From positions 17,447 to 81,446 of the forward strand of contig CAVRNT010000001.1 in assembly GCA_963722655.1 (NCBI GenBank): a DNA stretch of 64,000 nucleotides. Reading direction: 5' to 3'. A model generated the notes under the pieces. That model was not told the origin of the DNA, ran no database searches, and was given only the letters and a program-made list of their open reading frames with translations. The stretch is from an uncultured bacterium (GTDB taxonomy: Bacteria > Patescibacteriota > Minisyncoccia > UBA6257 > GWB1-50-10). Shown piece by piece: positions 32,625-58,761 of this stretch; position 1 is the stretch's first letter, and the number at the start of each line of letters is the position of its first letter. The translations under genes were made by a program, and so were the position numbers.

Positions 32625-33611
32625 ATGAAGCCAGTGCTCATCTCCGGCATCCAGCCGACGGGAAAACTCCATATCGGCAATTACCTGGGCTCGCTCCAGA
32701 ACTTCGTGGCGCTCCAAAACTCGGGCAAATACGAGTGTTATTTCTTTATCGCCGACCTTCATTCCCTCACCGAGGACTTCGACCCGAGGGAAAAGCCGAG
32801 GCAGGTCTTGAACGTCGCTTTGGACTACCTATCCGCCGGCATTGACCCCAAAAGGTCCGTTATCTTCCAGCAATCCGAGGTGCCGGCCCACAGCGAGCTC
32901 GCCGTCATTTTGAACAACTTCACTCCCCTTGGCGAACTGCGCCGGATGACGCAGTTCAAGGACAAGTCCGGAGATCGATCGGAAAACGTGAACGCCGGCC
33001 TTTTCGACTACCCGGTTCTCATGGCCGCCGATATATTGCTCTATGACGCCGCCTTCGTCCCTGTAGGCGACGATCAGGTCCAGCACCTGGAACTGGCGCG
33101 GACACTCGCCCGCCGATTCAACTCGCGCTTCGGCAAGACCTTCATCGAACCCAAACCGCTTCTTACGAGCGCCTCGCGCATAATGAGCTTGGACGATCCC
33201 ACAAAGAAGATGTCGAAGTCCCGCCCGACCGGATGCCTTTTGCTTGACGATGAACCGAACGTCATTCGCGAGAAGCTCAAACGGGCCACGACCGACTCCG
33301 GCCGCGAGGTGAAATACGACGAAAAGAACAAGCCCGGCATCTCGAACCTGCTCCAAATCTACGCCGGTACCATTAATGGTACCGTGCCGGAAGCCAAGCA
33401 GAAGTTCAAAAACGCGACTTATGCGGAATTCAAGAACGCCGTGGCTGAAGCGGTCATCAAGGAACTGGCCCCGTTCCAGAAAAAGAAGGAGGAGCTTACG
33501 AAAAACCCGGCGTCCGTAAAGAAGGTCCTTGCGGCCGGAGACAAAAAGGCCTTCTCCATTGCCGAGAAGAAAATAGTGGAGGTCAGGGGCAAAATAGGTT
33601 TAAACATATGA
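32625..33611 (+). CDS. trpS: tryptophan--tRNA ligase
   Basis: 328 aa. Class I motifs GKLHIGNYLG (HIGH) and KKMSKSRPTG (KMSKS). The size is that of bacterial TrpRS. Confidence 0.9.
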   Translation: MKPVLISGIQPTGKLHIGNYLGSLQNFVALQNSGKYECYFFIADLHSLTEDFDPREKPRQVLNVALDYLSAGIDPKRSVIFQQSEVPAHSELAVILNNFTPLGELRRMTQFKDKSGDRSENVNAGLFDYPVLMAADILLYDAAFVPVGDDQVQHLELARTLARRFNSRFGKTFIEPKPLLTSASRIMSLDDPTKKMSKSRPTGCLLLDDEPNVIREKLKRATTDSGREVKYDEKNKPGISNLLQIYAGTINGTVPEAKQKFKNATYAEFKNAVAEAVIKELAPFQKKKEELTKNPASVKKVLAAGDKKAFSIAEKKIVEVRGKIGLNI

Positions 33612-34513
33612 GCATGGAAAACAATTTCGAGGCGCGGGTGATGGATGAGATGCTGATGGACCAGGCCTATGAGAGGGCGGAGAACATCATCGAGAAGGAC
33701 GCAATAAAGATAGACAATCAGTTCAGCTACCACAAAGACGCTGATCGTGACAGGGCATACGTCGAAAAAATGGAAGATGAATTCGAACGAGAGGCCACGC
33801 CGGAAGAAAAAGAGGTCAGTAAGATTGCAACCGTCTTCGAAACGCTGGTTTACACTCACGGCGAGCTAAGCAACTGGTTCGGCAAGGATGCCGTCACCAT
33901 CAAAACCTCCCGATACGACGACATCGTGAACAAAATAGACAGCTTGGTGGAATTCAGGAAAGAACCGGGGTCGGCTTCCTACCTCGGCCTTGCCATAGAC
34001 GTCACGATGAGCAAGGAGATGGACGAAAAGCTGGAAAGCATAAGAAAGCAGATAGACAGCGGAAAATTATCGGAAGTGAAGTACTTTCACTCAAAGCACA
34101 TCGGGATGACCGGTACGCTGCATGATGTCCCTCGCGTGATCGCCGCGGCCAACCAAGGGACCATTAGGCAGCTCACCGAACTTTGGATGGAAAACGACAA
34201 TAAGGCCTTGGCCAACCACTGGATCCAGTTCCAGATGCTGGAGAGTATGTTGCTGCAGGCCAAGACGTTCAAACGATACGCCGAATCCAGAAACAAACCG
34301 GATGTGGCTCAAACGTACGACTCGGCCATCACCACTCTGGAAGCCATCCTTTTCGACAAAAAGCGGGAGGTTAAAGATAGCGGCGAGAGGGATTCGGCCT
34401 TCATCGCGATCGAGGAAAGATTGAAGCACTTCGGCGAAACGCCGCAGAAAACGGCCGGTCCGGAAACCGGCCGCCGACGCCCCAAAGATACGATTAGGGT
34501 CTGGAGACCTTAA
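33608..34513 (+). CDS. hypothetical acidic/helical protein
   Basis: 301 aa with no motif recognised. Its start overlaps the trpS stop by 4 nt, so it is likely co-transcribed. Confidence 0.5.
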   Translation: MSMENNFEARVMDEMLMDQAYERAENIIEKDAIKIDNQFSYHKDADRDRAYVEKMEDEFEREATPEEKEVSKIATVFETLVYTHGELSNWFGKDAVTIKTSRYDDIVNKIDSLVEFRKEPGSASYLGLAIDVTMSKEMDEKLESIRKQIDSGKLSEVKYFHSKHIGMTGTLHDVPRVIAAANQGTIRQLTELWMENDNKALANHWIQFQMLESMLLQAKTFKRYAESRNKPDVAQTYDSAITTLEAILFDKKREVKDSGERDSAFIAIEERLKHFGETPQKTAGPETGRRRPKDTIRVWRP

Positions 34514-37500
34514 GGACTCCGAGCCAAATCGGCCAATCCTCTAATTTCGTTTCGAGTTCGGCTTCGAAGCGGTCCTTGCGGCCGAAATCGACGCTCGAGG
34601 CGTTCACTTCTCTTTTGAGGAACTCCGCATTCGCCGTGACGAGATGTTTTATCTCCTCCGGCCCGTCCACCATCAAGGCCGCCTTGTCCCTCGGCTCCAG
34701 CCCGGCGTCCTGACGCAGTCCCTGGACCATCCGGACGAGCTCCCGGAGCCACCCCTCTTCCTTGAGCTCGTGGGTTATGTTCGCGTCCAGGACGAAGCTC
34801 TCTTTGAGCTTGGTGTCGAAAATCACTTTTTTAACGTTCACCTCGTCGGCGAGTATGGCTTGCAGCTCGCCAGCGTTGCTTAATTCCTTATTCTTAATTC
34901 TCAATTCGCCAAGCGGCTGGCGGACTTTGATGCCGAGTTCCGCCCGCTTCGCGAGGACGGCGCTCGCCAGATCGCGAACCGCTTTCATATCCTTTACGAT
35001 TTTTTTATCGGCTTGCCCCGAGCCGCATCGAAGGGGCCAGTCCGCCAAATGAACGCTCATGTCTTGTTCCTTGTCTCTTGTTTCTTGTTCCCGCAGAGAC
35101 AGGTACAGCGCATCGGCGAAGAAGGGCGTGAAGGGCGCGATGATCTTGCTTATTTCGTTTAAAACATGACCGAGCGTCGACGATGCGGCCGCATGATCTT
35201 TCTTTCCGTCAGCCGACGGATCCGGTTTTTGGAAACGCCGCCGAGAGCGCCGGATATACCACCGCGAAAGGTCATCCACGAGGCGCTCGATCTCGTTCGC
35301 CCCGCCGTTCACGTCGTAACGGTTCAGGTCTTTGGTGACTGCTGCCGTGGTCTCGGTGAGGCGGGCCAAGATCCATTCGTCCAATGCGTTCTTGTTTCTT
35401 GCTTCCTGTCCCTTGCCTCTGACGCTCCTATCCGCATAGGTGTTCCAAAAAACATAGGAGTTATAGAGCATCGTGAAGAACTGGCGCGAGTTCTTTCCGA
35501 GTTCCGCCTCGTCGAACTTCTTCGGCTCGCCTGGCGGGTTCACGGTGTAAAAATACCAGCGGACGGCGTCCACGCCGTATTTCTGGATCATGTCCCACGG
35601 GCTCACGACGTTCCCCTTGGACTTGGACATCTTCTGGCCGTTCTTGTCCAAAACGAGACCGAGAGAGATGACGTTCTTGTACGAGGCACCGCGGCCGAGG
35701 ATGGTCGAGACGGCGAGGAGGGTGTAGAACCAGCCCCGGGTCTGGTCGATCCCCTCCACGATGTAGTCGGCCGGATAGGCCGTGAGCTTTTCAAAAGGAT
35801 AATGGTCCTCGGCGAAGGGCATCGCGCCCGAGTCGAACCAAACATCGATCACCTCCTTCACACGGACCATCTTCCCGCCGCATTTTTCGCACTTGAACTT
35901 CACCGCATCCACGTACGGTCTATGGAAATCGGCCTCGCCGGTCTCGTTCCTTGGCACCGGAACGGAGGAAGTGACAAGGTGGCCGGCAAGGGCCAGAAAT
36001 TCCCCGGCGAAGAGCTCTCCCTGTTTCTCCCGTTCCCGAACGGCCCGGAAAGAATCCCAACCCCCGAGAACGCTCGCGAGCATCCAGAGCGAATGTTCGT
36101 GGCCGACGACGAGAATCGTTTTCCCCTTATGCGTTTTTTCCATCTCTGCCACGAAAGCGTAGGCTCGCTTCCGAACATCGGTAAGCGTCTCGCCGCCCTT
36201 GGGCGACGTCGTGAACTTGTCCTGAAGCATCTTAAAAAGAGCGTGGTATTCGCGCAAGGGATGGCCGTTCATGTCGCCGGCACTTATCTCGCGGAGGCGC
36301 GGGTCGAACTTAACGGTCTTAAGGCCGAGCGCCTTCTTCAAGATCTCGGCGGTCTCTTTGGTACGCGTGAGGTCGGACGAAAAGCAGAGGTCCACGCACT
36401 CATTCTTCAAGGCGCGCGCCGTTTTCTCCACCTGCGCCCGGCCTTTCACCGTCAGGTGATATTTCTTTCTCTCCGGCCAGGAATCGATGATGTCCAAGAT
36501 TATCTCCTCGGCCTCGCCGTGGCGGACCAAGATATAGCGATTGCCGGAACTCTTGTGCCCGGCCGCTAGGTCCGCGCCGTTCCCGATAACCTTTGAGTGG
36601 CCGCATTTTTCGCAAACCCAAACGGGCAGAGGTGTTCCCCAATACCTTTCGCGCGATATCGCCCAATCCTTCACGTCCTTGAGCCACTCGCCGAAACGCC
36701 CCTCCTTGATGTTCTCCGGCACCCAGTTGATACCCTCGTTCTCGGCGATCATCTCCGCTTTGAGCCGGCTCATACCGATGAACCAGGAATCGCGGGCGTA
36801 GTAGAGAAGCGGCGTGCCGCACCGCCAGCAGAAGGGATAATCGTGCGTGTATTTCTCCTCGCTGAAGAGGCGGTTCTCCTTTTTCAAATGGTCCAGGATC
36901 TTCCTCTCCGTTTCCGGCGATTTGACGTAAAGCCCGGCGAAATTCTTCACCTCGGCGACGAATTTCCCCTCGGGCGTCACGGTATGGAATGTCGGGAGGC
37001 CGATCTTGAGGCCCAGCTTGTAGTCGTCCTCGCCGTACATCACGGCGGTGTGGACGACACCCGTGCCGTCTCCCGTCGTCACGAAGCCCGCCTCGTAGAT
37101 CCTGTAACTCGTCTTGTTCTTCAGGCTCGGGACGGCGAAGAGCGGTTCGTATTCCAGCCCGACGAGTTTTTCGCCCTTCACGGTCCCGAGATCGGCGAAG
37201 TTCTCGTGGAGGACGCTGCCTAAACGCGCTTTGGCCAAGATGTAGGTCTCGCCGCTTTGGACCCGGACGATCCTGTAGTCGATGTTCTTCCCGACCGCCA
37301 AAGCGACGTTGCCGGGCAGCGTCCAGGGCGTCGTCGTCCAGGAAAGGACGAAGGTGTTGCCCTCGACCGCCAAGCGGCCGATCTTCTGGCCTTTCTTCAG
37401 GCGGAACTTGATGAAGACCGAGGTATCGGTCGTCTCCCGGTATCCTTGGGCGAGCTCGTGCGAAGAGAGCGCCGTCCCGCACCGCGGGCACCACGGCACG

Positions 37501-38030
37501 ACCTTGTGGCCCTTGTACAAAAGCTTCTTATTCCACGCCTCTTTCAAGATGGACCAAACCGATTCGATATAGTCGTTCGCATAGGTGACGTAGGGGTGGG
37601 CCATGTCCAACCAAAAGCCCATCCGTTCCGTGAGGCGTTCCCATTCGTCCTTGTACTGCCAGACGGACTCTTTGCACTTCTCGTTGAAGGCCGCAATGCC
37701 GAACTTCTCTATATCCTTCTTGGACTTGAGACCCAATTTTCTCTCCACCTCGAGCTCCACCGGCAGACCGTGTGTGTCCCACCCCGCCCGGCGCGGAACG
37801 TAGTAGCCGGCCATCGTCTTGTAGCGCAGGATGATGTCTTTGAACGAGCGGGAGAGGACGTGATGGATGCCCGGCTGGCCGTTCGCCGTGGGCGGACCTT
37901 CGTAGAAGACGAACTTTTTGCCCTTCTCGCGGTTCTTGAGGGACTTCTCGAAGACCCTGTTCGCCTGCCAGGATTTCAGGACCTTTTCCTCCACCTCCGG
38001 CAGGGAGAATTTTTCTAGGCGCTCTAACAT
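34494..38030 (-). CDS. ileS: isoleucine--tRNA ligase carrying an in-frame histidine-phosphatase (PGAM-like) domain insertion
   Basis: 1178 aa. PPTANGQPGIHH (HIGH region), WAISRERYWG (IleRS-specific), KMSKSKGN. Residues about 490-700 (YILVRHGEAE ... SSDLTRTKETAEI ... ILVVGHEHSLW) form a histidine-phosphatase-superfamily domain. It is inserted between the RYWG/Zn-knuckle region and HRPYVDAVKF. Confidence 0.9.
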   Translation of the reverse strand: MLERLEKFSLPEVEEKVLKSWQANRVFEKSLKNREKGKKFVFYEGPPTANGQPGIHHVLSRSFKDIILRYKTMAGYYVPRRAGWDTHGLPVELEVERKLGLKSKKDIEKFGIAAFNEKCKESVWQYKDEWERLTERMGFWLDMAHPYVTYANDYIESVWSILKEAWNKKLLYKGHKVVPWCPRCGTALSSHELAQGYRETTDTSVFIKFRLKKGQKIGRLAVEGNTFVLSWTTTPWTLPGNVALAVGKNIDYRIVRVQSGETYILAKARLGSVLHENFADLGTVKGEKLVGLEYEPLFAVPSLKNKTSYRIYEAGFVTTGDGTGVVHTAVMYGEDDYKLGLKIGLPTFHTVTPEGKFVAEVKNFAGLYVKSPETERKILDHLKKENRLFSEEKYTHDYPFCWRCGTPLLYYARDSWFIGMSRLKAEMIAENEGINWVPENIKEGRFGEWLKDVKDWAISRERYWGTPLPVWVCEKCGHSKVIGNGADLAAGHKSSGNRYILVRHGEAEEIILDIIDSWPERKKYHLTVKGRAQVEKTARALKNECVDLCFSSDLTRTKETAEILKKALGLKTVKFDPRLREISAGDMNGHPLREYHALFKMLQDKFTTSPKGGETLTDVRKRAYAFVAEMEKTHKGKTILVVGHEHSLWMLASVLGGWDSFRAVREREKQGELFAGEFLALAGHLVTSSVPVPRNETGEADFHRPYVDAVKFKCEKCGGKMVRVKEVIDVWFDSGAMPFAEDHYPFEKLTAYPADYIVEGIDQTRGWFYTLLAVSTILGRGASYKNVISLGLVLDKNGQKMSKSKGNVVSPWDMIQKYGVDAVRWYFYTVNPPGEPKKFDEAELGKNSRQFFTMLYNSYVFWNTYADRSVRGKGQEARNKNALDEWILARLTETTAAVTKDLNRYDVNGGANEIERLVDDLSRWYIRRSRRRFQKPDPSADGKKDHAAASSTLGHVLNEISKIIAPFTPFFADALYLSLREQETRDKEQDMSVHLADWPLRCGSGQADKKIVKDMKAVRDLASAVLAKRAELGIKVRQPLGELRIKNKELSNAGELQAILADEVNVKKVIFDTKLKESFVLDANITHELKEEGWLRELVRMVQGLRQDAGLEPRDKAALMVDGPEEIKHLVTANAEFLKREVNASSVDFGRKDRFEAELETKLEDWPIWLGVLKVSRP

Positions 38031-38108: not shown

Positions 38109-39665
38109 TCACATTTTGGAGGGGGCGGAGATCCCAAGCAGAGTAAAGAGGTTCTCTAGAACTACCGCGGTCGCTTGGACGAGAGCCAACCGGGCGTTTT
38201 TGACGTCCTGCCTCTCCCCAATCACCCGCTCCTTCTCGTAGAACTGCTGGAAGTCCTTGGCGAGGTCTAAGGCGTAGCGCGCCAAATGGTGGACCTGATA
38301 GTCCTTGGCCGCCGCTTCGATGACCGCCGGGAATTCCAATATCTGCCGGATAAGTTTCTCATCCTCGGGGGTGTTTAAAAGCGCGAGCGCTTTCGGGTCC
38401 ACTTTCGCCCTGCCGGCCTTCTTGATGACGCTCTTCGCCCGAACGTAGGAATACTGGACGTAGTAGACCGGGTTCTTGTTGGATTGCTCTTTGGCGAGCG
38501 CGAGGTCGAAATTCACGTGGGTGTTCGCCGAGACCATGAGCGAGAAGAAGCGGAAAACATCACGGCCGACCTCCTTGAGGAGCTCATCCACGGTTACATA
38601 GAGCCCCTTGCGCTTGGACATCCTGACGGCCTGGCCGTTCTGGACGAGGTGCACGAATTGCATCAGGATGATCGTCAATTTGTCCTTAGCTCCCAGGACC
38701 TCGGCCGCCGCCATTATCCTCGGCACGTCGCCGTGATGGTCGGTGCCCCAGACGTTGATGACGCGGTCGAACTTCCGTTCCAAGAACTTGTTGCGGTGAT
38801 AGGCGAAGTCCACGGCAAAATAGGTCGGTTCGCCGTCGGATTTGAGGAGCACCCGGTCCTTCTCGTCGCCGAACTTCGCCGCCCGGAACCAGAGCGCGCC
38901 GTCCTTTTCATAGGCCAGGTCTTTTTTCTTCAGCCATTCCAAGTTCTTTTTCACGGCGCCGGTCCGGTGGAGCGTCTTTTCCGAGAACCAAACGTCCATC
39001 TTGATGCCCATCCCGTCCCGCACCGTCTTCTTGATGGTCTTCAGGATCTCCCCCGCCGCCTTTTCGCCGACGACCTTCGGGTCGCTCCCCTTGATCTTCT
39101 TTTTCAAATTGTCGATGTATTCGCCGCGGTATTCTATCGGCTCCACTCCCAGAATGGACCGGCCGAGGGAGGTGATCTGCCCGCCCGCGTCGTTGAAATA
39201 GTATTCCTTAGTCACTTTGTAACCGGAAAACTTGAGGACATTCGCCAAGACGTCGCCGTAGACGCCGCCGCGACCGTTACCCAGCGTAAGCGGGCCGGTC
39301 GGGTTCGCCGAGACGAATTCCACTTGGATCTTTTCCTTTTTCGGGCTGCCCGTCCCGAACTTCTTTTTTTCCTTCAAGACCTTGAGCAGTCCGGCGTTCA
39401 AAGCGGCGGGGGTGAGATAGAAATTGACGAAGCCGGGGCCGGCCGATTCCACTTTTTCAAAAAACCCGGCTGGGGCGTTTTCCTTGACATCCCGCACTAA
39501 GGCGGCGGCGATCGCCGCCGGGTTCCTCCCTTGCTCCTTGGCGAGTTTGAAGGCGATCGTCGTCGCATAGTGCGCGCCCCGGTTTTCGGGCACGACGATG
39601 TCGGTCTCCTTGGCCTCGGGGACGATCTTCCGCAGGATCTTCAAAATGGTGTCTTTGGCACTCAC
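38109..39665 (-). CDS. argS: arginine--tRNA ligase
   Basis: 518 aa. VEFVSANPTGPLTLGNGRG: the HIGH motif is replaced by TLGN. RMSKRKG (KMSKS-like). ArgRS anticodon-binding C-terminus ending ...M. Confidence 0.85.
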   Translation of the reverse strand: MSAKDTILKILRKIVPEAKETDIVVPENRGAHYATTIAFKLAKEQGRNPAAIAAALVRDVKENAPAGFFEKVESAGPGFVNFYLTPAALNAGLLKVLKEKKKFGTGSPKKEKIQVEFVSANPTGPLTLGNGRGGVYGDVLANVLKFSGYKVTKEYYFNDAGGQITSLGRSILGVEPIEYRGEYIDNLKKKIKGSDPKVVGEKAAGEILKTIKKTVRDGMGIKMDVWFSEKTLHRTGAVKKNLEWLKKKDLAYEKDGALWFRAAKFGDEKDRVLLKSDGEPTYFAVDFAYHRNKFLERKFDRVINVWGTDHHGDVPRIMAAAEVLGAKDKLTIILMQFVHLVQNGQAVRMSKRKGLYVTVDELLKEVGRDVFRFFSLMVSANTHVNFDLALAKEQSNKNPVYYVQYSYVRAKSVIKKAGRAKVDPKALALLNTPEDEKLIRQILEFPAVIEAAAKDYQVHHLARYALDLAKDFQQFYEKERVIGERQDVKNARLALVQATAVVLENLFTLLGISAPSKM

Positions 39666-39759: not shown

Positions 39760-40200
39760 ATGAAGACATTGGCCGAAAACAGGCGTGTCCGTTTCGACTA
39801 CGACATATCGGAGAGGTATGACGCGGGCATTGAACTCAAGGGCTTTGAGGCCAAAGCCGTCGTTTTGGGGCACGCGAACCTCGCCGGCGCCTACGCCGTG
39901 GTGAAGGAGAACGAGGTCTGGCTCATAAACTGCGACATCCCGCCCTACCAGCCCAAGAATACACCGCCGGATTACGACTCCAAGCGCCCCCGCCGCCTTC
40001 TCCTCAAGCGCGAAGAGATCGCCGAGCTAGTGGGCCGCACGAAGGAGAAAGGATTGACTTTGGTGCCCATCAAGATATATAATAAGAGCCATCTCGTTAA
40101 GGTGGAATTGGGCCTCGGCCGCAGCCGCAAGAAGGCGGACAAACGCGAGGCGCTCAAAAAGAAGGCCACTGACCGCGAGATCCGTAATTTCAAAAGTTAG
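39760..40200 (+). CDS. smpB: SsrA-binding protein SmpB
   Basis: 146 aa. Region RRVRFDYDISERYDAGIELKGFEAKAV...CDIPPYQ. Basic C-terminal tail. Confidence 0.9.
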   Translation: MKTLAENRRVRFDYDISERYDAGIELKGFEAKAVVLGHANLAGAYAVVKENEVWLINCDIPPYQPKNTPPDYDSKRPRRLLLKREEIAELVGRTKEKGLTLVPIKIYNKSHLVKVELGLGRSRKKADKREALKKKATDREIRNFKS

Positions 40201-44723: not shown

Positions 44724-47204
44724 CTAACTGAAGGTAAATTCGCCGCCCTTAGAGCTCAAGTTCAACTTGCTCCCCCGTTTCACCTCGCCCCGGAGGATTT
44801 TGTCGGCCAGGACGCTCCTCACCTTCTCCTCGATCACGCCCCGGAGCGGCCGCGCGCCGAAGACGGGGCTCCAGCCGATCTTCACGATCGCCTCGAGGGC
44901 CGCTTGATCGTAGGCTAGAGAAATGTTATTGGATTGTTTCAAGGTCAAGGCGAGCTCCTGCATCATCAGGTCCGTTACCTTGACGAGCTCGGAAGGCGTG
45001 AGCTCCCGGAAGACGATGATGTCCGAGAAGCGGTTCAAGAGCTCCGGTTTGAAAAAGGTCGTGAGCTTCTGTTTCAAGGTGTCGGCGATCTCTTCCACCT
45101 TTTTCCCCGCCTCGATCTCGGATTTGATGTAGTCCGAGTGGGCGTTCGAGGTCGCGATGATCGCGGTGTTCGTGAAATCGACGGTCCTCCCCAAGCTGTC
45201 CGTGAGGCGGCCGTCGTCGAAGACCTGGAGGAAGAGGTTCAAGATATCGGGACTCGCCTTTTCGAACTCATCGAGGAGCACCAGCTGGTACGGCTTTTCG
45301 CGGACGGCGTCCGTAAGTACCCCGGGCCGGCTCCCGTCCGGCGCGCCGATGAAGCGGTCGAGGGACTCCTTTTCTTGGAACTCCGTCATATCGAAACGGG
45401 CCATCGCCTCCCGGCTTCCGAACTGCACCTCGGCGAGGATCTTCGCGAGCTCGGTCTTCCCGACGCCCGTGGGCCCCACGAAAAGGAAGCTGGCGATCGG
45501 CCCGCCGGCGCGTTTCAAGCCGCTCCGGTATTCGCGGAGCGAGCGGGAGACGGCCGAGACAGCCGCTTCCTGGTTGATGAGCTTCTGGTGGATCCTGTCT
45601 TCCAAATTCAAAAGTTCTTTTGCCTCCGCCCGGCCGGCCTTCTGAATGGGCACCCGGCTCAATTTTTCGGCCAAGGCCGTCACATCCTCTTCGGTCACCG
45701 CCTTCTTTCGCAGATCCTTGAGCGCGGCGAGCGTCTGTTTCAAAAGGTCGGCGGCGCTCCCCGGCAGGAGCTTCCCCGTGAAATAGCGGTGGGCCAACTC
45801 CACGGCGGCCTTGACCGCCCCGAAGGTGACGAAGATCCCGTACTCCTTTTCGAGAAGCAGGGATTCGTAGATCAAAAATTGCACGGCCTCGGCCTCGCCG
45901 ATCTCGTCCACGCGGACGACCTCGAACTGCTCCAAAAAGTCGGTTCGGGGTTCGATGAACTGCTTGAATTCGCGGGGATAGGTCTCGGCGACGACCGGGA
46001 TCTCGGCGTCCTTGATGACGGGCAAGACGAGGTCGATCGCGTTCAAACCGCCCTTCTCGGCCGTCTTGAACCAATCCTGGACGTTCGGGAGGAAGAGGAC
46101 GATGTTCCCGGCGCCCACAATTTCACTCGCGATGGTCTTGAGGCGCCCGGCCATCACGTCGGGCGTCGCGCTCGCGAGGAGCGTCGCGATATCGAGGGAG
46201 ACGAGGCGTTTGTCGAAAAGGATCGGCGGGACGTCGTCCTTGACCATCCGGAAGGCGAGATGGGCGATCATCGTGGACTTGCCGCTTCCCGGCTCGCCCA
46301 CAAGGAGGGCGTTTGGTTTGCCGGGCCGGGAGATAACCTCAAGGAGGCCAGCGAACTCCTTCTCGTGGCCGACCATGAGGCCGATCTTTTCCCCTCGCGC
46401 GAGGTCGGTGAGGTCGGTACCGAACTGGTCCAGGGTCGGCGTGGGCCGGGCCGTCCAGGCGCGGTTCATCGTCCGGTGGCGCAGATAGCCCGGCCGGTGG
46501 ACGAAACCGCCCAAGGTCGCCGGCAGATAGCGCAGCCCGGCGAACTTCCGGTGGAAGCGGCCGAAGATGACGGCCGCGGCGGCATCCACCGGGTCCACCT
46601 CCACCGCATCGAAGAGCATCTGGACCTCTGGGTCGCCGAGGACGAAGAGGGCGGCGAAGAGATTGCGGGGCTCGATGAAGTTCTCCCCCGAACGCAGCGC
46701 CGATCCATAGGCCTTGAGGATGAACGTCTCGAAAGCCGTTTCCGCGTCCGGATGACGCTCGCCGCTCTGGTTCAAAATGCCCTCCAACTTGTCCTTGAGG
46801 TTGCCAAGGTCCACCGAGAGGCGCTTCAGGACCTCGCGGATGTCGCGGCGCTCAATGAGCGAGAGGAGTAGAACGAGGTTGAAGTTCGCTCCGGTCACGG
46901 AGGTGCGGCGCTTGGCGTAAGCGAGGGCGCGGGCCGAAGCGGGTGTGATGGCTAAAGCGAGATTGGCGCGCGTCCGGCGGGAGATTTCGGAGAGCGTCCG
47001 CTCGCCCTTCTTGGCGTGGAAGAGCCGGTCGAGGAGGAAAGTGGCGATGAGGAGCCCGACGTAGAAGAGATGACTTTGGGGCGCCATTAAGAGGACGAGG
47101 GCGGCGACCGTAAGGACGATGTAAGCGCAGATCGTGACGAGGCGGGCGGTGAAATCCCCGGCCGGGCTCAAATTGAATCTCCTGTCCTTGAAATAGGTCT
47201 CCAT
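44724..47204 (-). CDS. membrane-anchored Hsp100/Clp-family AAA+ ATPase (two AAA modules)
   Basis: Two N-terminal TM helices (LVTICAYIVLTVAALVLLM, LFYVGLLIATFLL). A Clp_N-like repeat region. D1 Walker A GEPGSGKST. D2 Walker [13 protein letters not shown] and Walker B LVLLDEFEKA. No IGF loop. The start is taken at Met32 (METYFKD), which abuts the stop of the upstream small ORF. Confidence 0.75.
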   Translation of the reverse strand: METYFKDRRFNLSPAGDFTARLVTICAYIVLTVAALVLLMAPQSHLFYVGLLIATFLLDRLFHAKKGERTLSEISRRTRANLALAITPASARALAYAKRRTSVTGANFNLVLLLSLIERRDIREVLKRLSVDLGNLKDKLEGILNQSGERHPDAETAFETFILKAYGSALRSGENFIEPRNLFAALFVLGDPEVQMLFDAVEVDPVDAAAAVIFGRFHRKFAGLRYLPATLGGFVHRPGYLRHRTMNRAWTARPTPTLDQFGTDLTDLARGEKIGLMVGHEKEFAGLLEVISRPGKPNALLVGEPGSGKSTMIAHLAFRMVKDDVPPILFDKRLVSLDIATLLASATPDVMAGRLKTIASEIVGAGNIVLFLPNVQDWFKTAEKGGLNAIDLVLPVIKDAEIPVVAETYPREFKQFIEPRTDFLEQFEVVRVDEIGEAEAVQFLIYESLLLEKEYGIFVTFGAVKAAVELAHRYFTGKLLPGSAADLLKQTLAALKDLRKKAVTEEDVTALAEKLSRVPIQKAGRAEAKELLNLEDRIHQKLINQEAAVSAVSRSLREYRSGLKRAGGPIASFLFVGPTGVGKTELAKILAEVQFGSREAMARFDMTEFQEKESLDRFIGAPDGSRPGVLTDAVREKPYQLVLLDEFEKASPDILNLFLQVFDDGRLTDSLGRTVDFTNTAIIATSNAHSDYIKSEIEAGKKVEEIADTLKQKLTTFFKPELLNRFSDIIVFRELTPSELVKVTDLMMQELALTLKQSNNISLAYDQAALEAIVKIGWSPVFGARPLRGVIEEKVRSVLADKILRGEVKRGSKLNLSSKGGEFTFS

Positions 47205-47205
47205 A

Positions 47206-47550
47206 TCAAATGAAAAGGTGAGCAACGAGATATATCGGGAAGATAAGCCAAACCGCGTAAACGGCGATCGCCAGCGCGCCGAGGACGAGGTAAACAACGC
47301 CGCCGACGATGAGCCGGAAGAGGCGTAGAGGCAATCCGATGACGCGACCGAGGAGCGAGTAGTCGCCGTAGAGCGGCTCTAGGAGGTGCCGGAGGGTGAC
47401 GCGAAAGGCCAAGATCCGATCCAAATCGTGGAACCGCTCGATGAGGAAATTGAAATAGACGCGGGCGCTTCCTAGATACCAATGCCGCAAGAACTCGGCG
47501 ATCCGGAAGAGTAATTGCTCGCCCAAATAAACGAAAACCATCGGATTCAT
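47206..47550 (-). CDS. small hypothetical membrane protein
   Basis: 114 aa with two C-terminal hydrophobic helices. Its stop is 1 nt before the Met32 start of the AAA+ gene. Confidence 0.4.
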   Translation of the reverse strand: MNPMVFVYLGEQLLFRIAEFLRHWYLGSARVYFNFLIERFHDLDRILAFRVTLRHLLEPLYGDYSLLGRVIGLPLRLFRLIVGGVVYLVLGALAIAVYAVWLIFPIYLVAHLFI

Positions 47551-47807
47551 TATAATCCGGATTTAAGGAGGATGCTAAACGATGCCAGCAATAAAACCCT
47601 GGTGCCCCCTCATGGTCTCAGAATTGTAGGAATGAGACCACCTAAGGGTTATTTGACTATCTTTCAAAATAACGAATCTAGCCCTCTCGGTAGCATTCGT
47701 TATTTTATTGTAAGGCAAAACAAGAGCTTTTCAAATAGAAAAGGTGCTTTGGGATTGTTACGAAAGTGACAAGTTTTTGAGACTTTGGGATGTAACATTC
47801 TCAAACT

Positions 47808-48344
47808 CTAGACCAACCGCACATCCATCAGTCTTATCGTAAGCATATGTTCGCTTACTCTATAAAGTTTTGAAAGAACTTGAAGATCTGGGCTATTACC
47901 AAAATCCTTCTTTATAAATCCCGTTGGTACTAAAAGTTCTCCGGCAAAAAGATTGGCTTCTCTCTCGTTGTGGGTTCCATCATCCTGTTTATTTGTGCAT
48001 GTGTGTCCTAATAGTAAATGACCGATTTCGTGGGCTATGGTAAAGCGGCGTCGGCACCATGGCTGATTTCCATTGAAACCGATTGTAGCGTATTCAGAAT
48101 CAATTTCTTTACAAACCACCAACAAGCCGGAAACCTTATTTCCAATATTTATTTTTTTAACATCAAGATCATGAGTTGCCTGGAGATACTCAATAACACG
48201 CTGGAGCGAAACCGGCGCGGTGTTTATACTGGCTCCATTAATTACCTTCTGAGCAAGTACCTTGACCAGTTTTTTGCGCGGCCCCAAATCTGGAATATCA
48301 TTTTCCATCTCCACTCGTCTTGCTCCTTTGCTTAGCCAGATCAA
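47808..48344 (-). CDS. ImmA/IrrE-family (M78) metallopeptidase
   Basis: HEIGHLLLGH is the HEXXH zinc motif in the ImmA/IrrE context. It overlaps the XRE gene upstream by 47 nt. Confidence 0.8.
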   Translation of the reverse strand: MIWLSKGARRVEMENDIPDLGPRKKLVKVLAQKVINGASINTAPVSLQRVIEYLQATHDLDVKKINIGNKVSGLLVVCKEIDSEYATIGFNGNQPWCRRRFTIAHEIGHLLLGHTCTNKQDDGTHNEREANLFAGELLVPTGFIKKDFGNSPDLQVLSKLYRVSEHMLTIRLMDVRLV

Positions 48345-48648
48345 TAAACCGGAGAATAGCGTCCTTATCCTCCTTAGCGAGTTCTTTATCGGCTCGAAGA
48401 GCCACCTGAACAGTCGTGGTTGTTTTCTCGTCTTGTCCCAAGAAATATTTTATATCCCGGTGAAGTACCTCGCTTAGCCTCTGCAGAATAGATGAGGACA
48501 CCCCCCGTTCGCCACTTTCTATTAAAGAAATTGCGGTAGCCGACTGAAAGCCCAGAGCCTTGGCCAAATCGATCTGGGAAAGACCCATTTCCTCGCGGGC
48601 GGCCTTAATCCACGAACCTATATGGTTAGCGTTTGCTTCGTTTTTCAT
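48298..48648 (-). CDS. XRE-family helix-turn-helix transcriptional regulator
   Basis: GLSQIDLAKALGFQSATAISLIESGERGVS is the Cro/C1-type HTH. Confidence 0.8.
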   Translation of the reverse strand: MKNEANANHIGSWIKAAREEMGLSQIDLAKALGFQSATAISLIESGERGVSSSILQRLSEVLHRDIKYFLGQDEKTTTTVQVALRADKELAKEDKDAILRFIDLAKQRSKTSGDGK

Positions 48649-48750
48649 ATTGAAAGTATAGGCTTATCATTCCGATTTGACAATATTCACCATTTTGCTA
48701 AAATGGGTTTATCATTTTGGAAGGTCGCCAGTTAACCAGTAATAATCATC

Positions 48751-49023
48751 ATGAGCACATATCTCGTATCATATGACCTAATTCGCCCAGGGAAGGACTA
48801 TACCCACCTTCTCGAGCATCTTAGGAGCTACTCCGACTGGGCTAAGCCGCTCGAATCGGTATGGCTCTTGAAGAGCGGACTCGGGATCGCGGAGCTTCGC
48901 AATACGATCCAGGCCCATATGGATTCTAACGACAAGATTCTTGTCGTAGATATCACCGGAAAGGCTGCGGCGTGGGATAAACTCCCGAACGACGTCAGCA
49001 CGTGGATAAAAAACAACATATAA
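48751..49023 (+). CDS. hypothetical small protein (possible Cas2/VapD-like alpha+beta fold)
   Basis: 90 aa. MSTYLVSYDLIRPGKDYTHLLEHLRSYSDWAKPLESVWLLKS has the YxVxYDL...SVW pattern reminiscent of Cas2/VapD N-termini. No other support. Confidence 0.35.
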   Translation: MSTYLVSYDLIRPGKDYTHLLEHLRSYSDWAKPLESVWLLKSGLGIAELRNTIQAHMDSNDKILVVDITGKAAAWDKLPNDVSTWIKNNI

Positions 49024-49051
49024 AAAGTCGCTAAATAAATTATCGGCCATA

Positions 49052-49426
49052 GTGGCCAAAAAAACAACCATGGGATCAGGAGTAAATCGTAGGAAGGGGG
49101 ACAATATATCAATAACACCTCAAAAACCGCGTCCAATATCTGGCACGGGAGGAAGCTATTCCCCGACATCACAAGAAAATCGCAAGGGTCCGGTTTGCCC
49201 ATCTTCATTCCGGGCAGATTTAAGCCGCCACCTAATGATTGGTTCTCACCTATCATTGAGACAGCACGGCGAGACACTCGTTATTTACGCCGACTCCCAA
49301 GAAGTCGGACGCCTCAATCGAGCGACATCAAAAAGGATTATCAAATGCATTCTATCCGGATTTCGTTACGAAGGCGTCGTGAAGGAGAACGAGGGTCGAC
49401 AGTATGCTGAATTCACCCAAAAATAA
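49052..49426 (+). CDS. hypothetical protein
   Basis: 124-aa ORF. The N-terminus is low-complexity and basic. It overlaps the next gene by 23 nt. Confidence 0.3.
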   Translation: MAKKTTMGSGVNRRKGDNISITPQKPRPISGTGGSYSPTSQENRKGPVCPSSFRADLSRHLMIGSHLSLRQHGETLVIYADSQEVGRLNRATSKRIIKCILSGFRYEGVVKENEGRQYAEFTQK

Positions 49427-50531: not shown

Positions 50532-50566
50532 TTCATTCCATTCAAATATTTGATAAACTGAATTAT

Positions 50567-51379: not shown

Positions 51380-51445
51380 TATTTACGGTTAAACAATCTG
51401 CTTAACAGCGACACAGGGTGTCGCCTTTCTGTTTAAGATGGGAGC

Positions 51446-53456: not shown

Positions 53457-53941
53457 AAAAGAACGACCAGACGAAGAAACTTATTATCGAGCAGCTGCAC
53501 AAAACACCGATAGTGGAAGTGGCGTGTCAGAAAATCGGCATATCGAGGATGACCTTTTACCGCTGGAAGAAAGACGAGCCGGAATTCGCGAAGCTTGCGG
53601 ACGAGGCGATTTTCGAAGGCCAATCCCTCATGAACGATCTAGCGGAAAGCCAGCTCATCGGCGCGGTCAAGGAAAGGAATCTGCCCGCAATCATATATTG
53701 GCTCCGGCACCACCATCCCGATTATGCGAATAAGCTTGAAATCAAGCACGCGATTCAGGACGAAAATCTGACTCCGGAACAGGAAGCGCTCGTCCGGGAA
53801 GCTTTAAGACTAGCCACCTTGAGTGAAGAAAAGGTCGAAATCAACCCAGAAGAAAAAATCGATGAATTACAAGAACATAATCCCGCCGGAACTGACGGAG
53901 GCGATGATAAAGGACCGGAAGGTGCGGGTGGCGATCACTAA
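53453..53941 (+). CDS. putative terminase small subunit / HTH DNA-binding protein
   Basis: HTH region IVEVACQKIGISRMTFYRWKKDEPEF. Its position is directly upstream of terL. The start is taken at Met20, overlapping the MTase stop (ATGA). Confidence 0.45.
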   Translation: MKKNDQTKKLIIEQLHKTPIVEVACQKIGISRMTFYRWKKDEPEFAKLADEAIFEGQSLMNDLAESQLIGAVKERNLPAIIYWLRHHHPDYANKLEIKHAIQDENLTPEQEALVREALRLATLSEEKVEINPEEKIDELQEHNPAGTDGGDDKGPEGAGGDH

Positions 53942-56688: not shown

Positions 56689-56819
56689 AAGTATTGGTTG
56701 ATTTTTTATTTCTTAAAGACATAAAAAAGCCATCAGATATTTTTATGGTGGACGAAAAAGGGCAGTAATAATCTTCTCTGATTTGGAGTGAAGATTTACG
56801 CCGACATTAAACAAGGATT

Positions 56820-57732: not shown

Positions 57733-57743
57733 GATGAGTGGCT

Positions 57744-57977: not shown

Positions 57978-57986
57978 CAAGAACAA

Positions 57987-58748: not shown

Positions 58749-58761
58749 ACATGGCTAACTT

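Follow-up and report, generated by a model that had tools for sequence, protein, structure and literature searches.

The window, by which we mean the whole 64,000-nt stretch of patescibacterial DNA analysed here, encodes a type-2 isoleucyl-tRNA synthetase (IleRS) that carries a complete branch-1 histidine phosphatase, inserted in frame at the tip of its CP3 zinc knuckle (Table 1). A sequence-only reading had pointed to an ileS ORF of 1178 aa, about 150-250 aa too long, with a phosphatase domain at residues about 490-700. Both points hold up. The insert-free IleRSs of related genomes have 962-968 aa, so that the window protein is about 210 aa longer, and the insertion spans aa 491-699, compared with aa 484-691 for the positions originally given (35960-36580). 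In the alignment with T. thermophilus IleRS (1ILE), residues 8-490 of the window protein match 1ILE residues 8-478 and residues 700-1033 match 1ILE residues 488-820, and thus about 209 residues stand in place of about nine in the CP3 zinc knuckle. The domain also sits where it had been placed, namely between the WxISRxRYWG/first CxxC region and the HRPYVD/second CxxC region, upstream of KMSKS, in lieu of a short linker. Among the best 120 homologues, the length from C476 to H703 is 216-236 aa.

Table 1. Features of the ileS locus and its surroundings, with positions in the window
Feature	Positions	Strand	Basis
ileS ORF, 1178 aa, type-2 IleRS with nested phosphatase domain	34494..38030	-	single unbroken ORF in ORF listing
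IleRS N-terminal part, aa 1-490	36561..38030	-	alignment to 1ILE residues 8-478; Pfam tRNA-synt_1 at aa 17-502
HIGH-type signature, here G-I-H-H, aa 54-57	37860..37871	-	motif location and homologue conservation
CP1 editing-domain Thr-rich motif WTTTPWTLPGN, aa 231-241	37308..37340	-	motif location and conservation
CP2-CP3 linker VKDWAISRERYWG, aa 453-465	36636..36674	-	motif location
CP3 zinc knuckle, first Cys pair CEKCGH (C473, C476)	36597..36614	-	aligned with T. thermophilus C461/C464 region
Insertion, aa 491-699: N-terminal linker, histidine phosphatase domain, C-terminal tail	35934..36560	-	alignment gap against 1ILE and 8C8W
His_Phos_1 (PF00300) core, aa 500-659	36054..36533	-	Pfam, AF2, Foldseek
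RHG motif: R503, predicted nucleophile H504, G505	36516..36524	-	conservation
R556, second phosphate-binding arginine, within SSDLTRTKETAE	36363..36365	-	invariant, 120/120
E581, predicted proton donor, within RLREISAG	36288..36290	-	alignment to PhoE 1EBB/1H2E
E614 of GGE motif	36189..36191	-	invariant, 120/120
R622	36165-36167	-	present in 119/120
H644, second catalytic histidine, within VVGHEHSLW	36099..36101	-	invariant, 120/120
CP3 zinc knuckle, second Cys pair CEKCGG (C714, C717)	35874..35891	-	aligned with T. thermophilus C502/C504 region
IleRS C-terminal part, aa 700-1178	34497..35933	-	alignment to 1ILE residues 488-820; Pfam matches
KMSKS loop, aa 800-804	35619..35633	-	motif location
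argS, directly upstream of ileS, 78-nt spacer	38109..39665	-	ORF listing; synteny with L001, L004, L005, L008 and 80 GTDB loci
smpB, divergent neighbour, conserved marker of the syntenic block	39760..40200	+	ORF listing
iPGM (cofactor-independent mutase), elsewhere in the window	20966-22522

The host matched the ileS model TIGR00392 in the NCBIfam search with 886.2 bits (cut-off 621.4), in two stretches flanking the insert, and Pfam placed tRNA-synt_1, Anticodon_1 (aa 884-1040, E=5e-27) and DUF5915 (aa 1069-1165) around His_Phos_1. The full-length AF2 model (pLDDT 91.7, pTM 0.85) had as its top structural matches the type-2 enzymes P. megaterium IleRS2 (8C8U/8C8W) and T. thermophilus IleRS (1ILE), matched over the full-length host with sequence E-values of ~1e-243 and target-normalised TM of 0.78-0.86; type 2 is the eukaryote-like, mupirocin-resistant kind of bacterial IleRS. 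The window host shares with them the domain order, the DUF5915-type C-terminal domain and the GxHH-type first motif, the form GIHH being common to P. megaterium IleRS2 in the alignment. With the Thermus enzyme, whose CP3 has a zinc motif (PMC7191050), it also shares the CP3 zinc knuckle. Its N-terminal part comprises the first Rossmann-fold half, the CP core, the CP1 editing domain, CP2 and the first CP3 strand; the C-terminal part holds the remainder of CP3, the second Rossmann-fold half, KMSKS, the anticodon-binding domain and the DUF5915-type C-terminal domain. Structures of isolated editing domains (1WK8 and 1UE0) match aa 196-399. Invariant in the best 120 homologues are the editing-motif residues W231, T232, T233, T234, W236, T237 and L238, the loop residues K800, M801, S802 and K803, and the knuckle cysteines C473, C714 and C717; C476 and the first-motif residues P53, G54, H56 and H57 are kept in at least 90%. 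Judged from its sequence, the host retains all the hallmarks of a working IleRS, that is, the HIGH-type motif, KMSKS, the CP1 editing motifs, both Cys pairs and the anticodon-binding domain. An identity with the mupirocin-resistance enzymes MupA/MupB (NF000257/NF000258) was rejected at ~801 bits against a cut-off of 1900, the protein being a type-2 IleRS nonetheless.

The insert is recognised by His_Phos_1 (PF00300, gathering threshold 21.7) within the whole protein (E=3.2e-34, 118.8 bits) and on its own (E=1.7e-35, 122.9 bits), and in the insert-only AF2 model (pLDDT 90.7) it has the alpha/beta/alpha fold of the histidine phosphatases. The two motifs named in the sequence-only reading, YILVRHGEAE (aa 499-508) and ILVVGHEHSLW (aa 639-649), are both present. 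Among the best 120 homologues, R503, H504 and S552 are found in every one and G505 in 116. Aligned to PhoE (1EBB/1H2E), E581 pairs with the E of RLREIHLGDWEG, a position where 114 of the same 120 have E and the other 6 have D. The mean column identity of the homologue alignment is 0.59 for the insert, 0.61 for the anticodon-binding domain and 0.58 for the C-terminal domain. A seven-residue catalytic signature is intact in 101 of 103 free domains and 87 of 90 nested ones, as well as in all analysed copies from ValRS, tandem arrays, the ArgRS fusion and the TsaC fusions. Going by these residues, the domain is very probably catalytically active. It would be a phosphomonoesterase working via a phospho-His504 intermediate: the phosphate would be bound by R503, R556 and H644, and the leaving group would receive its proton from E581.

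Foldseek matched the insert model to four proteins with a probability of 1.00 and TM of 0.70-0.79 (rmsd ~2.5 A): PhoE (1EBB/1H2E), the metal-independent phosphoserine phosphatase PspA/iPSP1 (4IJ5), the glucosyl-3-phosphoglycerate phosphatase GpgP Rv2419c (4PZ9) and CobC (6E4B/6NRU). These are generic, short, broad-specificity branch-1 phosphatases of differing specificities, all of them free-standing metabolic enzymes. The insert has their fold, their length (~190-210 aa) and the same catalytic residues, but only 22-26% sequence identity, and, unlike the insert clade, none of the four is nested in or encoded beside a synthetase. The clade has motifs of its own (RHGEA...SWPE, DxRLREIxFG and ILIVSHxxPLWxLE). 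The insert belongs to branch 1 of the histidine phosphatases (PF00300), and the earlier label 'PGAM-like' is not to be taken to mean phosphoglycerate mutase: all models of the cofactor-dependent mutase, dPGM, score far below their cut-offs (TIGR01258, 30.3 vs 81.7; the archaeal NF038349, 71-73 vs 225; others, PRK models included, 16-46 vs at least 305), the domain has ~190 aa rather than ~250, and the window already encodes an iPGM. Identities with PspA (NF045917, 58.3-62.3 bits vs 350), SixA (TIGR00249, 29.2 bits vs 74.5, N-terminal 70 residues only) and CobC (TIGR03162, 75.8-80.2 bits vs 162.9) were likewise rejected, CobC, the alpha-ribazole-5'-phosphate phosphatase, being the best equivalog-level similarity of the insert, below its threshold. 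Also among its best NCBIfam matches is NF005567 (68-72 bits, cut-off 326), the RNase H/CobC-like acid phosphatase of the Rv2228c type, in which a nucleic-acid enzyme is joined to a similar short branch-1 phosphatase; that type is an end-to-end fusion with another partner enzyme, whereas the window domain is nested.

The unusual length of the ORF is the sole point in favour of an assembly chimera or a frameshift artefact joining a phosphatase gene to ileS. The nested architecture was found in at least 120 protein clusters from independent Patescibacteria assemblies, the homologue set being the best 120 matches, as well as in the GTDB genomes of 21 species, obtained in independent studies. PF00133 and PF00300 occur together in all 120 of these homologues, at 54-100% identity and from many sources, and a recorded contig of 379,531 bp encodes the identical protein. 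Both flanks are continuous IleRS and include both halves of the zinc knuckle. The composition is uniform, with a GC content of 0.584 in the insert against 0.586 and 0.567 in the rest of ileS, and with GC3 and synonymous codon usage (r=0.87) in agreement. Because the same architecture recurs in independent assemblies, the nested phosphatase-IleRS is not a chimera, and we give the artefact practically no chance. The sequence-only reading had likewise called the segment an insertion with continuous flanks, and three of the checks it proposed bear it out, namely the Pfam search, the structure prediction and the survey of orthologues, in which the same insertion appeared in 120/120 best homologues and 21/80 GTDB species genomes.

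In most related Patescibacteria, the phosphatase is a free gene of ~190 aa, and the nested domain is the in-cis form of it. Across the 80 surveyed GTDB species loci, the free gene (hp) lies upstream of an insert-free ileS in 59, in the order argS-hp-ileS (47 directly upstream, 12 with 0.4-2 kb between), the phosphatase is nested in ileS in 21, and in none is it away from ileS. Wherever the free gene is present, the CP3 insert is absent: the two states are mutually exclusive. Free homologues sit in a tightly packed operon, between argS and the insert-free ileS with gaps of 1-17 nt, at the position taken by the argS-ileS spacer of the window, and SmpB adjoins argS in L001, L004, L012 and most GTDB loci. 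NUDIX, HD_3/YfbR-like and CYTH genes are recurrent in the hp-ileS slot of relatives. In a tree of the IleRS core, the root has the free state and no fewer than three changes are needed, which suggests that the free state is ancestral. We regard the architecture and the origin described here as nearly certain. In relatives, ileS is directly preceded by the phosphatase as a gene of its own, so that the two enzymes form a widespread partnership. The phosphatase is probably coupled functionally to class I synthetases, not merely co-expressed with them.

Relatives also carry the phosphatase in other hosts and at other sites. It is nested elsewhere in IleRS, in some cases at the start of the anticodon-binding domain, and in ValRS (at least four copies). 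In the same syntenic block, ArgRS bears it as a C-terminal fusion that begins straight after its DALR anticodon-binding domain, and TsaC is a further fusion partner. His_Phos is by far the commonest guest, present in 107 of 120 relatives of P0223. In the IleRS P0458, for which no His_Phos is listed, a HAD-fold phosphatase occupies the same slot, and therefore phosphatase chemistry itself seems to be selected. In P0459, P0483 and P0475, His_Phos is accompanied inside IleRS by a P-loop AAA_33/AAA_18 kinase-like domain, although these matches are weak and generic (E 1e-5 to 1e-13). A P-loop kinase is likewise joined to a His_Phos_1 domain in PFK-2/FBPase-2 (6-phosphofructo-2-kinase/fructose-2,6-bisphosphatase) and to a phosphatase in Pnkp (T4 Pnkp, mammalian PNKP), which heals RNA/DNA ends. 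The three IleRSs resemble these enzymes in domain composition only, and the window protein, unlike such kinase-phosphatase pairs, is without a kinase-like domain. Gracilibacteria- and Peregrinibacteria-type relatives have IleRSs with GNAT and His_Phos together, and Gracilibacteria-type IleRSs also host GNAT, DUF559 nuclease, transposase-like and hydrolase domains, a variety that could mean that IleRS loops simply tolerate insertions. The fusion partners of TsaC in these lineages include Ogt, TruB, 2H cyclic phosphodiesterase, NUDIX, GNAT and DNA glycosylase domains; because its small partners are so many and so unrelated, the TsaC-phosphatase fusion is weak evidence.

The sequence-only reading had suggested that the domain could act on a nucleotide or a phospho-sugar, or be a regulatory module, and any of these may apply. 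As to the substrate class, our leading guess, a tentative one, is a nucleotide or pyrophosphate by-product of adenylation, because IleRS, ValRS, ArgRS and TsaC share only that chemistry, all being enzymes that turn ATP into an adenylate plus PPi. A diffusible substrate is suggested because the position of the domain on its host is too variable for a fixed geometry, as the ArgRS fusion and the IleRS sites at the start of the anticodon-binding domain illustrate. The phosphatase would be kept physically and stoichiometrically coupled to class I synthetases, and its job would be to clear a diffusible phosphate compound made by ATP-dependent adenylation, a candidate being an adenine-nucleotide-type phosphomonoester or pyrophosphate; in this way it may serve as a local house-cleaning or product-removal module. 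The co-nested P-loop kinase-like domains, the genes recurrent in the hp-ileS slot and the sub-threshold similarity to CobC are consistent with a nucleotide-type substrate. The nearest structures, however, are generic and differ in specificity, AMP hydrolysis looks wasteful in a nucleotide-salvaging organism, and a diffusible product creates no obvious need for a tethered enzyme, or for IleRS specifically. The TsaC fusion lends the guess weak support, IleRS loops host many guest domains, and our literature search found no branch-1 histidine phosphatase acting as an inorganic pyrophosphatase.

Alternatively, the phosphatase might strip a blocking phosphate from the tRNA held by the synthetase, such as a 3'-/2'-phosphate, the opened product of a 2',3'-cyclic phosphate or a toxin-added pyrophosphate, whereupon the CCA-adding enzyme would rebuild the tRNA for charging. 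We consider this unlikely. The main hosts IleRS, ValRS and ArgRS are indeed all tRNA binders, and CP3, the dominant nesting site, begins right after the CP2-CP3 linker, whose equivalent in yeast IleRS (segment 453-465) lines the pocket of the tRNA CCA end (PMC7955072). Tandem nesting with kinase-like domains, the single HAD-fold replacement and the 2H cyclic phosphodiesterase domains fused to TsaC in the same radiation would also fit. RNA end healing by the known enzymes T4 Pnkp and Trl1 relies on this set of domains, P-loop kinase, HAD phosphatase and 2H phosphodiesterase. In the E. coli CCA-adding enzyme, a phosphatase and a cyclic phosphodiesterase activity reside in the HD domain, and a part in the repair of tRNA 3' ends has been proposed for them. 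Yet we know of no member of the histidine phosphatase superfamily that acts on RNA ends, and the host position varies, the ArgRS C-terminus and the start of the IleRS anticodon-binding domain being far from the acceptor end. Neither a ligase nor a CCA-adding enzyme gene is linked, a preference for tRNA-Ile would find no explanation, and the AAA_18/AAA_33 matches are as weak as noted above. It is doubtful, too, that there is no mechanistic link at all. The phosphatase would then be a housekeeping enzyme whose metabolic substrate (a phospho-amino acid, say, or a sugar phosphate) has nothing to do with the synthetase; it would be located by chance in a translation operon, and its fusions into permissive surface loops would have been tolerated and fixed in reduced genomes. 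The domain does resemble generic broad-specificity phosphatases, fusions are rampant in these lineages (the TsaC partners, and unrelated IleRS guests including nuclease and transposase-like domains), and for a local rearrangement the gene next door is the donor most readily at hand; CP3, moreover, is structurally variable among IleRSs (PMC7191050) and therefore probably permissive. Chance does not readily account for a guest that is the commonest of all, found in 120/120 best homologues and 107/120 relatives of P0223, that turns up in several copies and at several sites, with ValRS and ArgRS as hosts too, and whose slot a non-homologous HAD phosphatase can take. In addition, hp lies upstream of or within ileS in 80/80 surveyed loci across deep IleRS clades, and simple read-through fusion would not place a domain 1.4 kb into ileS.

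A role in protecting an essential drug or toxin target seems improbable. As a protein phosphatase, the domain could restore a synthetase that HipA-like kinase toxins have phosphorylated and thereby inhibited; alternatively, it could inactivate an inhibitor of the synthetase that is itself phosphorylated. Protein phosphatases such as SixA, PGAM5 and Sts belong to the histidine phosphatase superfamily, HipA-family kinases inactivate GltX, TrpS and LysS, and mupirocin is a natural inhibitor aimed at IleRS. IleRS and ArgRS are targets of natural inhibitors, and GNATs, with which the phosphatase is co-nested in relatives, are documented to confer immunity to Trojan-horse antibiotics that target synthetases (bioRxiv 10.64898/2025.12.02.691738). 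In contrast to resistance and immunity genes, which are usually patchy, the phosphatase gene is core-like and syntenic across a class-level clade; at E<=0.01 no PADLOC defence model matched the insert or either of two free homologues (P0148 and P0137), the SixA model reached 29 bits against 74.5, and neither in the window nor at the loci examined does a kinase toxin gene accompany the phosphatase. Nor do we know of an IleRS inhibitor that is a phosphate monoester. We judge it very improbable that the domain is an inert structural or assembly module. It would then act only as a spacer, as a surface for tRNA binding or as a dimerisation handle through which synthetases come together, much as the GST-like domains do in the multi-synthetase complex of eukaryotes. 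Many members of the histidine phosphatase family are dimers, and the same domain on several synthetases, in multiple copies, is what would be expected of a homotypic interaction module. CP3 of human IARS1 is a protein-docking surface, which receives LARS1 (PMC13439101). A purely structural role, however, would not maintain the full catalytic signature seen in practically every copy and context, and the free-standing form is without an attached partner to assemble.

Class Ia synthetases have idiosyncratic insertion modules, such as CP1, CP2, CP3 and the leucine-specific domain of LeuRS, and their second Rossmann-fold half and CP3 are known sites of lineage-specific insertions and of protein contacts (PMC7191050, PMC13439101). 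Such modules, where known, are small and non-enzymatic, tuning tRNA binding, editing or complex assembly, whereas the window insert is an enzyme with its own active site: where 8C8U/8C8W and 1ILE have ~9-20 residues between the CP3 Cys pairs, the window protein has a folded enzyme domain of ~209 residues. A curated precedent for an IleRS with an extra enzyme domain is NF040702 (ileS_w_GNAT). The window protein was rejected as a member (342 bits vs 1999) and differs in IleRS subtype and lineage; the Pfam scan found no acetyltransferase family in it, nor, in the whole-protein scan at E<=0.01, a Hint/intein family.

The sequence-only reading knew of no description of the architecture. This stands insofar as our literature search found no paper describing an IleRS-nested phosphatase or the hp-ileS partnership, but the architecture is abundant in sequence databases and has been seen by automatic annotation, one relative bearing the JGI name 'isoleucyl-tRNA synthetase/phosphohistidine phosphatase SixA/...GNAT'. 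A wider reading, which we consider unlikely, is that class I synthetases of the candidate phyla radiation may bear built-in or operon-encoded repair and protection enzymes acting in cis. The histidine phosphatase would be their core, to which P-loop kinase-like, HAD, GNAT and hydrolase domains would have been added in some lineages, and their targets would be the synthetase's own tRNA or the synthetase itself. Such enzymes would, for example, take blocking phosphates off damaged or toxin-modified tRNA ends, or reverse an attack by a kinase or an antibiotic. If true, this reading would reveal a previously unrecognised layer of translation maintenance attached to the charging enzyme.

The window encodes an isoleucyl-tRNA synthetase (IleRS) that carries, at the zinc knuckle of connective peptide 3 (CP3) of an otherwise intact enzyme, a histidine phosphatase fold with a complete and conserved active site. 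The host itself is an ordinary type-2 IleRS. NCBIfam model TIGR00392 matched it in two stretches with 886 bits against a cut-off of 621, identifying it as an IleRS, and Pfam found tRNA-synt_1, Anticodon_1 and DUF5915, with His_Phos_1 between them; identities with MupA/MupB and with ileS_w_GNAT were both rejected by the NCBIfam models. The host retains all the functional marks of an IleRS: the GIHH form of the first class I signature, KMSKS, the Thr-rich editing motif, both Cys pairs, and the anticodon-binding and DUF5915-type C-terminal domains are invariant or nearly so among its 120 best homologues. The alignment shows a first-signature variant of the same kind, GVHH, in P. megaterium IleRS2, and variants of this kind are linked to mupirocin hyper-resistance. 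AlphaFold2 modelled the whole protein with a mean pLDDT of 91.7 and a pTM of 0.85, and the closest structural matches to this model were the type-2 IleRS of P. megaterium and the Thermus IleRS.

Alignment with T. thermophilus IleRS (1ILE) delimits the insert, as residues 8-478 and 488-820 of 1ILE correspond to residues 8-490 and 700-1033 of the window protein, about 9 residues being replaced by about 209. The flanking Cys pairs align with those forming the zinc-binding motif of the Thermus CP3 subdomain, and just before them lies the counterpart of the yeast CP2-CP3 linker, which in yeast IleRS forms the lining of the tRNA CCA-end pocket (PMC7955072). His_Phos_1 (PF00300) matched residues 500-659 with E=3.2e-34 and 118.8 bits against a threshold of 21.7, with a continuous IleRS alignment on either side. 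A sequence-only reading had placed a PGAM-like domain at 35960-36580, which corresponds to aa 484-691, and both motifs on which it relied are present, YILVRHGEAE at aa 499-508 and ILVVGHEHSLW at aa 639-649. The predicted structure bears this reading out: the insert forms a well-ordered domain within the whole-protein model, most 10-residue blocks having a pLDDT of 95-97, and folds confidently as a phosphatase when modelled alone (pLDDT 90.7). The insert-only model superimposed on GpgP Rv2419c, PspA/iPSP1, PhoE, CobC and Rv3214 with TM scores of 0.70-0.79, an rmsd of about 2.5 A and 22-26% identity; the guest is an ordinary short branch-1 histidine phosphatase. R503, H504, G530, S552, R556, E614 and H644 are invariant in the alignment of the 120 best homologues, while position 581 holds E in 114 of them and D in the other 6; together these residues make up the superfamily's full catalytic set. 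The domain is under selection: mean column identity in the phosphatase core, 0.59, is close to that in the anticodon-binding (0.61) and C-terminal (0.58) domains of the host IleRS.

Features of the window, in nucleotide positions of the window and residues of the window IleRS
Feature	Nucleotides	Strand	Residues	Remarks
ileS ORF	34494..38030	-		single uninterrupted frame, 1178 aa
First class I signature GIHH	37860-37871	-		replaces H-x-G-H
CP2-CP3 linker VKDWAISRERYWG			453-465	just before CEKCGH
Cys pair before insert			C473/C476	in CEKCGH
Insert	35934-36560	-	491-699	gap in 1ILE alignment
Cys pair after insert			C714/C717	in CEKCGG
KMSKS			800-804	
Editing motif WTTTPWTLPGN				Thr-rich
301-aa ORF	33608-34513	+		no Pfam match; convergent with ileS, overlapping its 3' end by 20 nt
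ClpB/ClpC-like AAA+ protein	10095-12737	-		
ClpB/ClpC-like AAA+ protein	44724-47297	-		
N6/N4 DNA methylase	51446-52723	+		low-GC3 region
Large serine recombinase	55324-56688	-		low-GC3 region
LOOT RNA (Rfam RF03000)	57782-57900	-		81.4 bits against gathering score 46.4, E=9e-14; low-GC3 region
Type I restriction R subunit	58762-61575	-		low-GC3 region

The architecture is real, widespread and conserved. All 120 best homologues, drawn from NCBI, JGI, ENA and Logan, carry both PF00133 and PF00300; they are 1110-1373 aa long, share 54-100% identity with the window protein and bear the organism names Patescibacteria, Jorgensen-, Wolfe- or Brennerbacteria, Paceibacterota or Minisyncoccia. A contig of 379,531 bp encodes a recorded protein identical to that of the window. 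An assembly chimera was rejected, since the same architecture occurs in at least 120 clusters and in 21 species genomes and composition is uniform, the insert resembling the rest of ileS in GC content, GC3 and synonymous codon choice. As to what the domain is not, the dPGM models all scored far below their cut-offs, so that phosphoglycerate mutase was rejected (the window encodes an iPGM at 20966-22522), and the CobC, PspA and SixA equivalogs likewise fell below theirs. An intein was rejected for lack of any Hint family in the Pfam scan, and a known defence-system component for lack of any PADLOC match.

The insert is equivalent to a small gene, here called hp, that encodes a free histidine phosphatase upstream of ileS. 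When 1.84 billion cluster representatives (50% identity) were searched exhaustively with the insert by HMMER, 10,084 matched at E<=1e-3, of which 966 reached E<=1e-10. Of the best 150, 96 are IleRS hosts and one is a ValRS host; about 50 are short or other proteins, many of them free-standing proteins of about 190 aa that are 35-48% identical to the insert and have clade-specific motifs in common with it. Three such protein clusters (P0148, P0137 and P0149) lie directly upstream of insert-free ileS genes (962-968 aa) with gaps of 1-17 nt, usually immediately after argS; P0185 lies upstream of an ileS of the other subtype, P0156 between argS and a convergent ileS, and P0210 was the only free homologue examined that is located elsewhere. 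The window has the same smpB / argS-ileS synteny as these relatives, but without the small hp gene, and tblastn with the insert matched only itself in the window. Promoter and terminator scans around the window's argS-ileS stayed at chance level, and Rfam found no regulatory RNA adjoining ileS.

We surveyed GTDB species with a tight 11-sequence alignment (A4) of free, ileS-adjacent members, as a broad 35-sequence alignment (A2) contained no sufficiently conserved stretch and was unusable as a query. The survey confirmed 435 relatives, and we retained the 80 best loci, whose record titles include Staskawicz-, Nealson- or Wolfebacteria, Paceibacterota and Ca. Paceibacter normanii. Among these best 80 of 435, found with an ileS-adjacent type of query that has to be borne in mind for the counts, 47 have the phosphatase as an ORF of its own immediately upstream of ileS, 12 have it upstream at a distance of 0.4-2 kb (room for about one gene), 21 have it inside one ileS ORF of 1106-1195 codons, and none has it elsewhere. 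Where the free gene is present in these loci, the CP3 site of ileS is always short, with 13-115 nt between the flanking matches. A conserved third partner between hp and ileS was rejected, the intervening genes (L014, L018, L021, L028, L017/L035 and L043) being heterogeneous: HD_3/YfbR-like nucleotidase, NUDIX, Fic, CYTH, PLP-dependent enzyme and PaaX/Cas2-like. In three loci (L001, L004 and L005), NUDIX genes are found in the neighbourhood of argS as well. In another locus (L008:2682-5609, - strand), ileS is convergent with argS-hp and is called as two ORFs in succession, the N part, which includes CP1, at 4371-5609 and the C part at 2682-4346; the IleRS may be genuinely split, or the break may be a frameshift. 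The argS-hp-ileS synteny is shared by many MAGs submitted as 'uncultured Candidatus Saccharibacteria' (within L015-L093); in IleRS they cluster with Staskawicz- and Nealsonbacteria, and the names under which they were submitted look doubtful.

Since the phosphatase-domain tree (190 columns) lacked resolution, with free and nested forms interleaved, we counted events on an IleRS-core tree built by neighbour joining from 74 sequences and 915 columns. Its root is the free state, with at least three state changes, and the nested enzymes all fall within one region, where the window IleRS groups with those of L089 (Ca. Wolfebacteria) and L091 (Ca. Paceibacterota). With the root in the free state, the nested architecture is the derived one: the gene directly upstream of ileS moved about 1.4 kb into ileS, in essentially one main event.

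The phosphatase also recurs on other class I synthetases. A ValRS fragment of 1161 aa (P0129), whose ORF runs off a 3.9-kb contig, holds at least four nested copies of the same phosphatase clade at several sites, one after CP1, one at the counterpart of the insertion site in the window IleRS and a further two in tandem, with the catalytic signature intact in all three copies analysed. IleRS of the other subtype (GPPFATGTPHYGH; P0217, P0223 and P0245) carry two or three copies, which are found in the zinc knuckle, in the stretch between 'HYPF' and 'ADFIAEGxDQTRGWF', and where the anticodon-binding domain begins; the P0223 gene (L094:8001-12260) has POR, purA, DAHP synthase and SLH protein genes as neighbours and no adjoining argS. 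An ArgRS (P0165; L012:7001-9070 and L013:7001-9070) bears the phosphatase fused at its C-terminus, in the same syntenic block (L20-L35-IF3-smpB / argS ... RecO-DUF7619) with ileS missing. C-terminal fusions occur as well on TsaC, the Sua5/YrdC threonylcarbamoyl-AMP synthase (P0246, L011:977-2140, and P0278-P0280). The latter are a weaker clue, because TsaC in Patescibacteria is also fused to Ogt (very commonly), TruB, 2H cyclic phosphodiesterase, NUDIX, GNAT and a DNA glycosylase domain. All ValRS, IleRS, ArgRS and TsaC copies preserve the seven catalytic signature residues, save one with changes at two secondary positions.

Relatives of P0223, named Gracilibacteria, Peregrinibacteria and Peribacteria, have His_Phos in 107 of the 120 best matches. 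Their IleRS (P0397-P0483) reach 1200-1859 aa and often contain further nested domains: GNAT, of the type curated by NCBIfam as ileS_w_GNAT, AAA_33/AAA_18/Zeta-toxin-like P-loop, DUF559/REase, alpha/beta hydrolase and Y1-transposase-like. Because these Gracilibacteria-type enzymes also host nuclease and transposase-like domains, part of the recurrence may reflect permissive loops. One of them (P0458) has a HAD-fold phosphatase in the same slot with no His_Phos listed, and the presence of a non-homologous phosphatase there suggests that phosphatase chemistry itself is under selection.

From the conserved residues, we infer an active phosphomonoesterase working through a phospho-His504 intermediate; the domain is probably also coupled functionally to class I synthetases. 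Our leading proposal, which we put forward tentatively, is that it clears a diffusible nucleotide-type phosphate compound, or pyrophosphate, from adenylation. IleRS, ValRS, ArgRS and TsaC have only the conversion of ATP to adenylate plus PPi in common, and the attachment points are indifferent to geometry: two of them, the C-terminus of ArgRS behind its DALR domain and the beginning of the anticodon-binding domain in IleRS, lie far from the acceptor end. P-loop domains resembling adenylate kinase are nested alongside the phosphatase, the hp-ileS operon slot repeatedly holds NUDIX, HD_3/YfbR-like and CYTH genes, and the closest equivalog similarity, although sub-threshold, is to CobC, a nucleotide-type phosphatase. 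However, a literature search of limited depth established no pyrophosphatase of this phosphatase branch, hydrolysis of AMP looks wasteful, and a diffusible product needs no tether. A non-exhaustive search for inorganic pyrophosphatase in CPR bacteria found nothing relevant.

The variable geometry of attachment that suits clearance of a diffusible product speaks against dephosphorylation of a blocked tRNA end, which we consider unlikely. Such a role would fit the position of CP3 after the CCA-pocket linker and the guest domains seen across the radiation, as P-loop kinase, HAD, 2H and His_Phos together are the toolkit of RNA end-healing enzymes; we know of no precedent for it in the histidine phosphatase superfamily. 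That the domain is an unrelated housekeeping phosphatase, merely co-expressed and fused, also seems improbable to us. GNAT immunity enzymes are documented to act against synthetase inhibitors (bioRxiv 10.64898/2025.12.02.691738), a parallel for a protective module against kinase toxins or inhibitors; the phosphatase gene is core-like and syntenic rather than patchy, and we regard protection as quite unlikely. A purely structural role is very hard to reconcile with the conserved active site.

Elsewhere in the window, the GC3 of ORFs drops from about 0.8 to 0.33-0.6 over 47800-64000, a region that is probably an integrated island with restriction-modification genes. The 301-aa ORF begins 4 nt inside the end of trpS (32625-33611), and the second ClpB/ClpC-like protein has a weak Pfam match in its first ATPase domain.

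Few enzymes are as well studied as the aminoacyl-tRNA synthetases, and their accessory domains have repeatedly exposed new biology in editing, signalling and complex assembly. Precedents for such domains are ileS_w_GNAT, the CP insertions and the leucine-specific domain, and the Rv2228c type is a precedent for fusion of the same kind of phosphatase to a nucleic-acid enzyme. What is new is the combination of IleRS with a phosphatase, together with the conserved operon partnership behind it; in line with the sequence-only reading, which knew of no description of the architecture, full-text literature searches found no paper on it or on the hp-ileS operon. Such sequences have been publicly available for years, with both parts annotated by automatic pipelines; many such proteins are labelled just 'class I tRNA ligase family protein' and could now be properly named. 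Throughout a large clade of bacteria, the catalytic body of IleRS houses a second, apparently active enzyme. The pattern suggests that a phosphatase reaction matters to the adenylate-forming translation enzymes of minimal-genome organisms, for which, to our knowledge, no such requirement has been known. Knowing the substrate would assign a function to a phosphatase family that has about a thousand strong matches (E<=1e-10) among the 50%-identity cluster representatives, and could uncover an additional step of tRNA maintenance, a novel means of dealing with aminoacylation by-products or a new strategy of self-protection.
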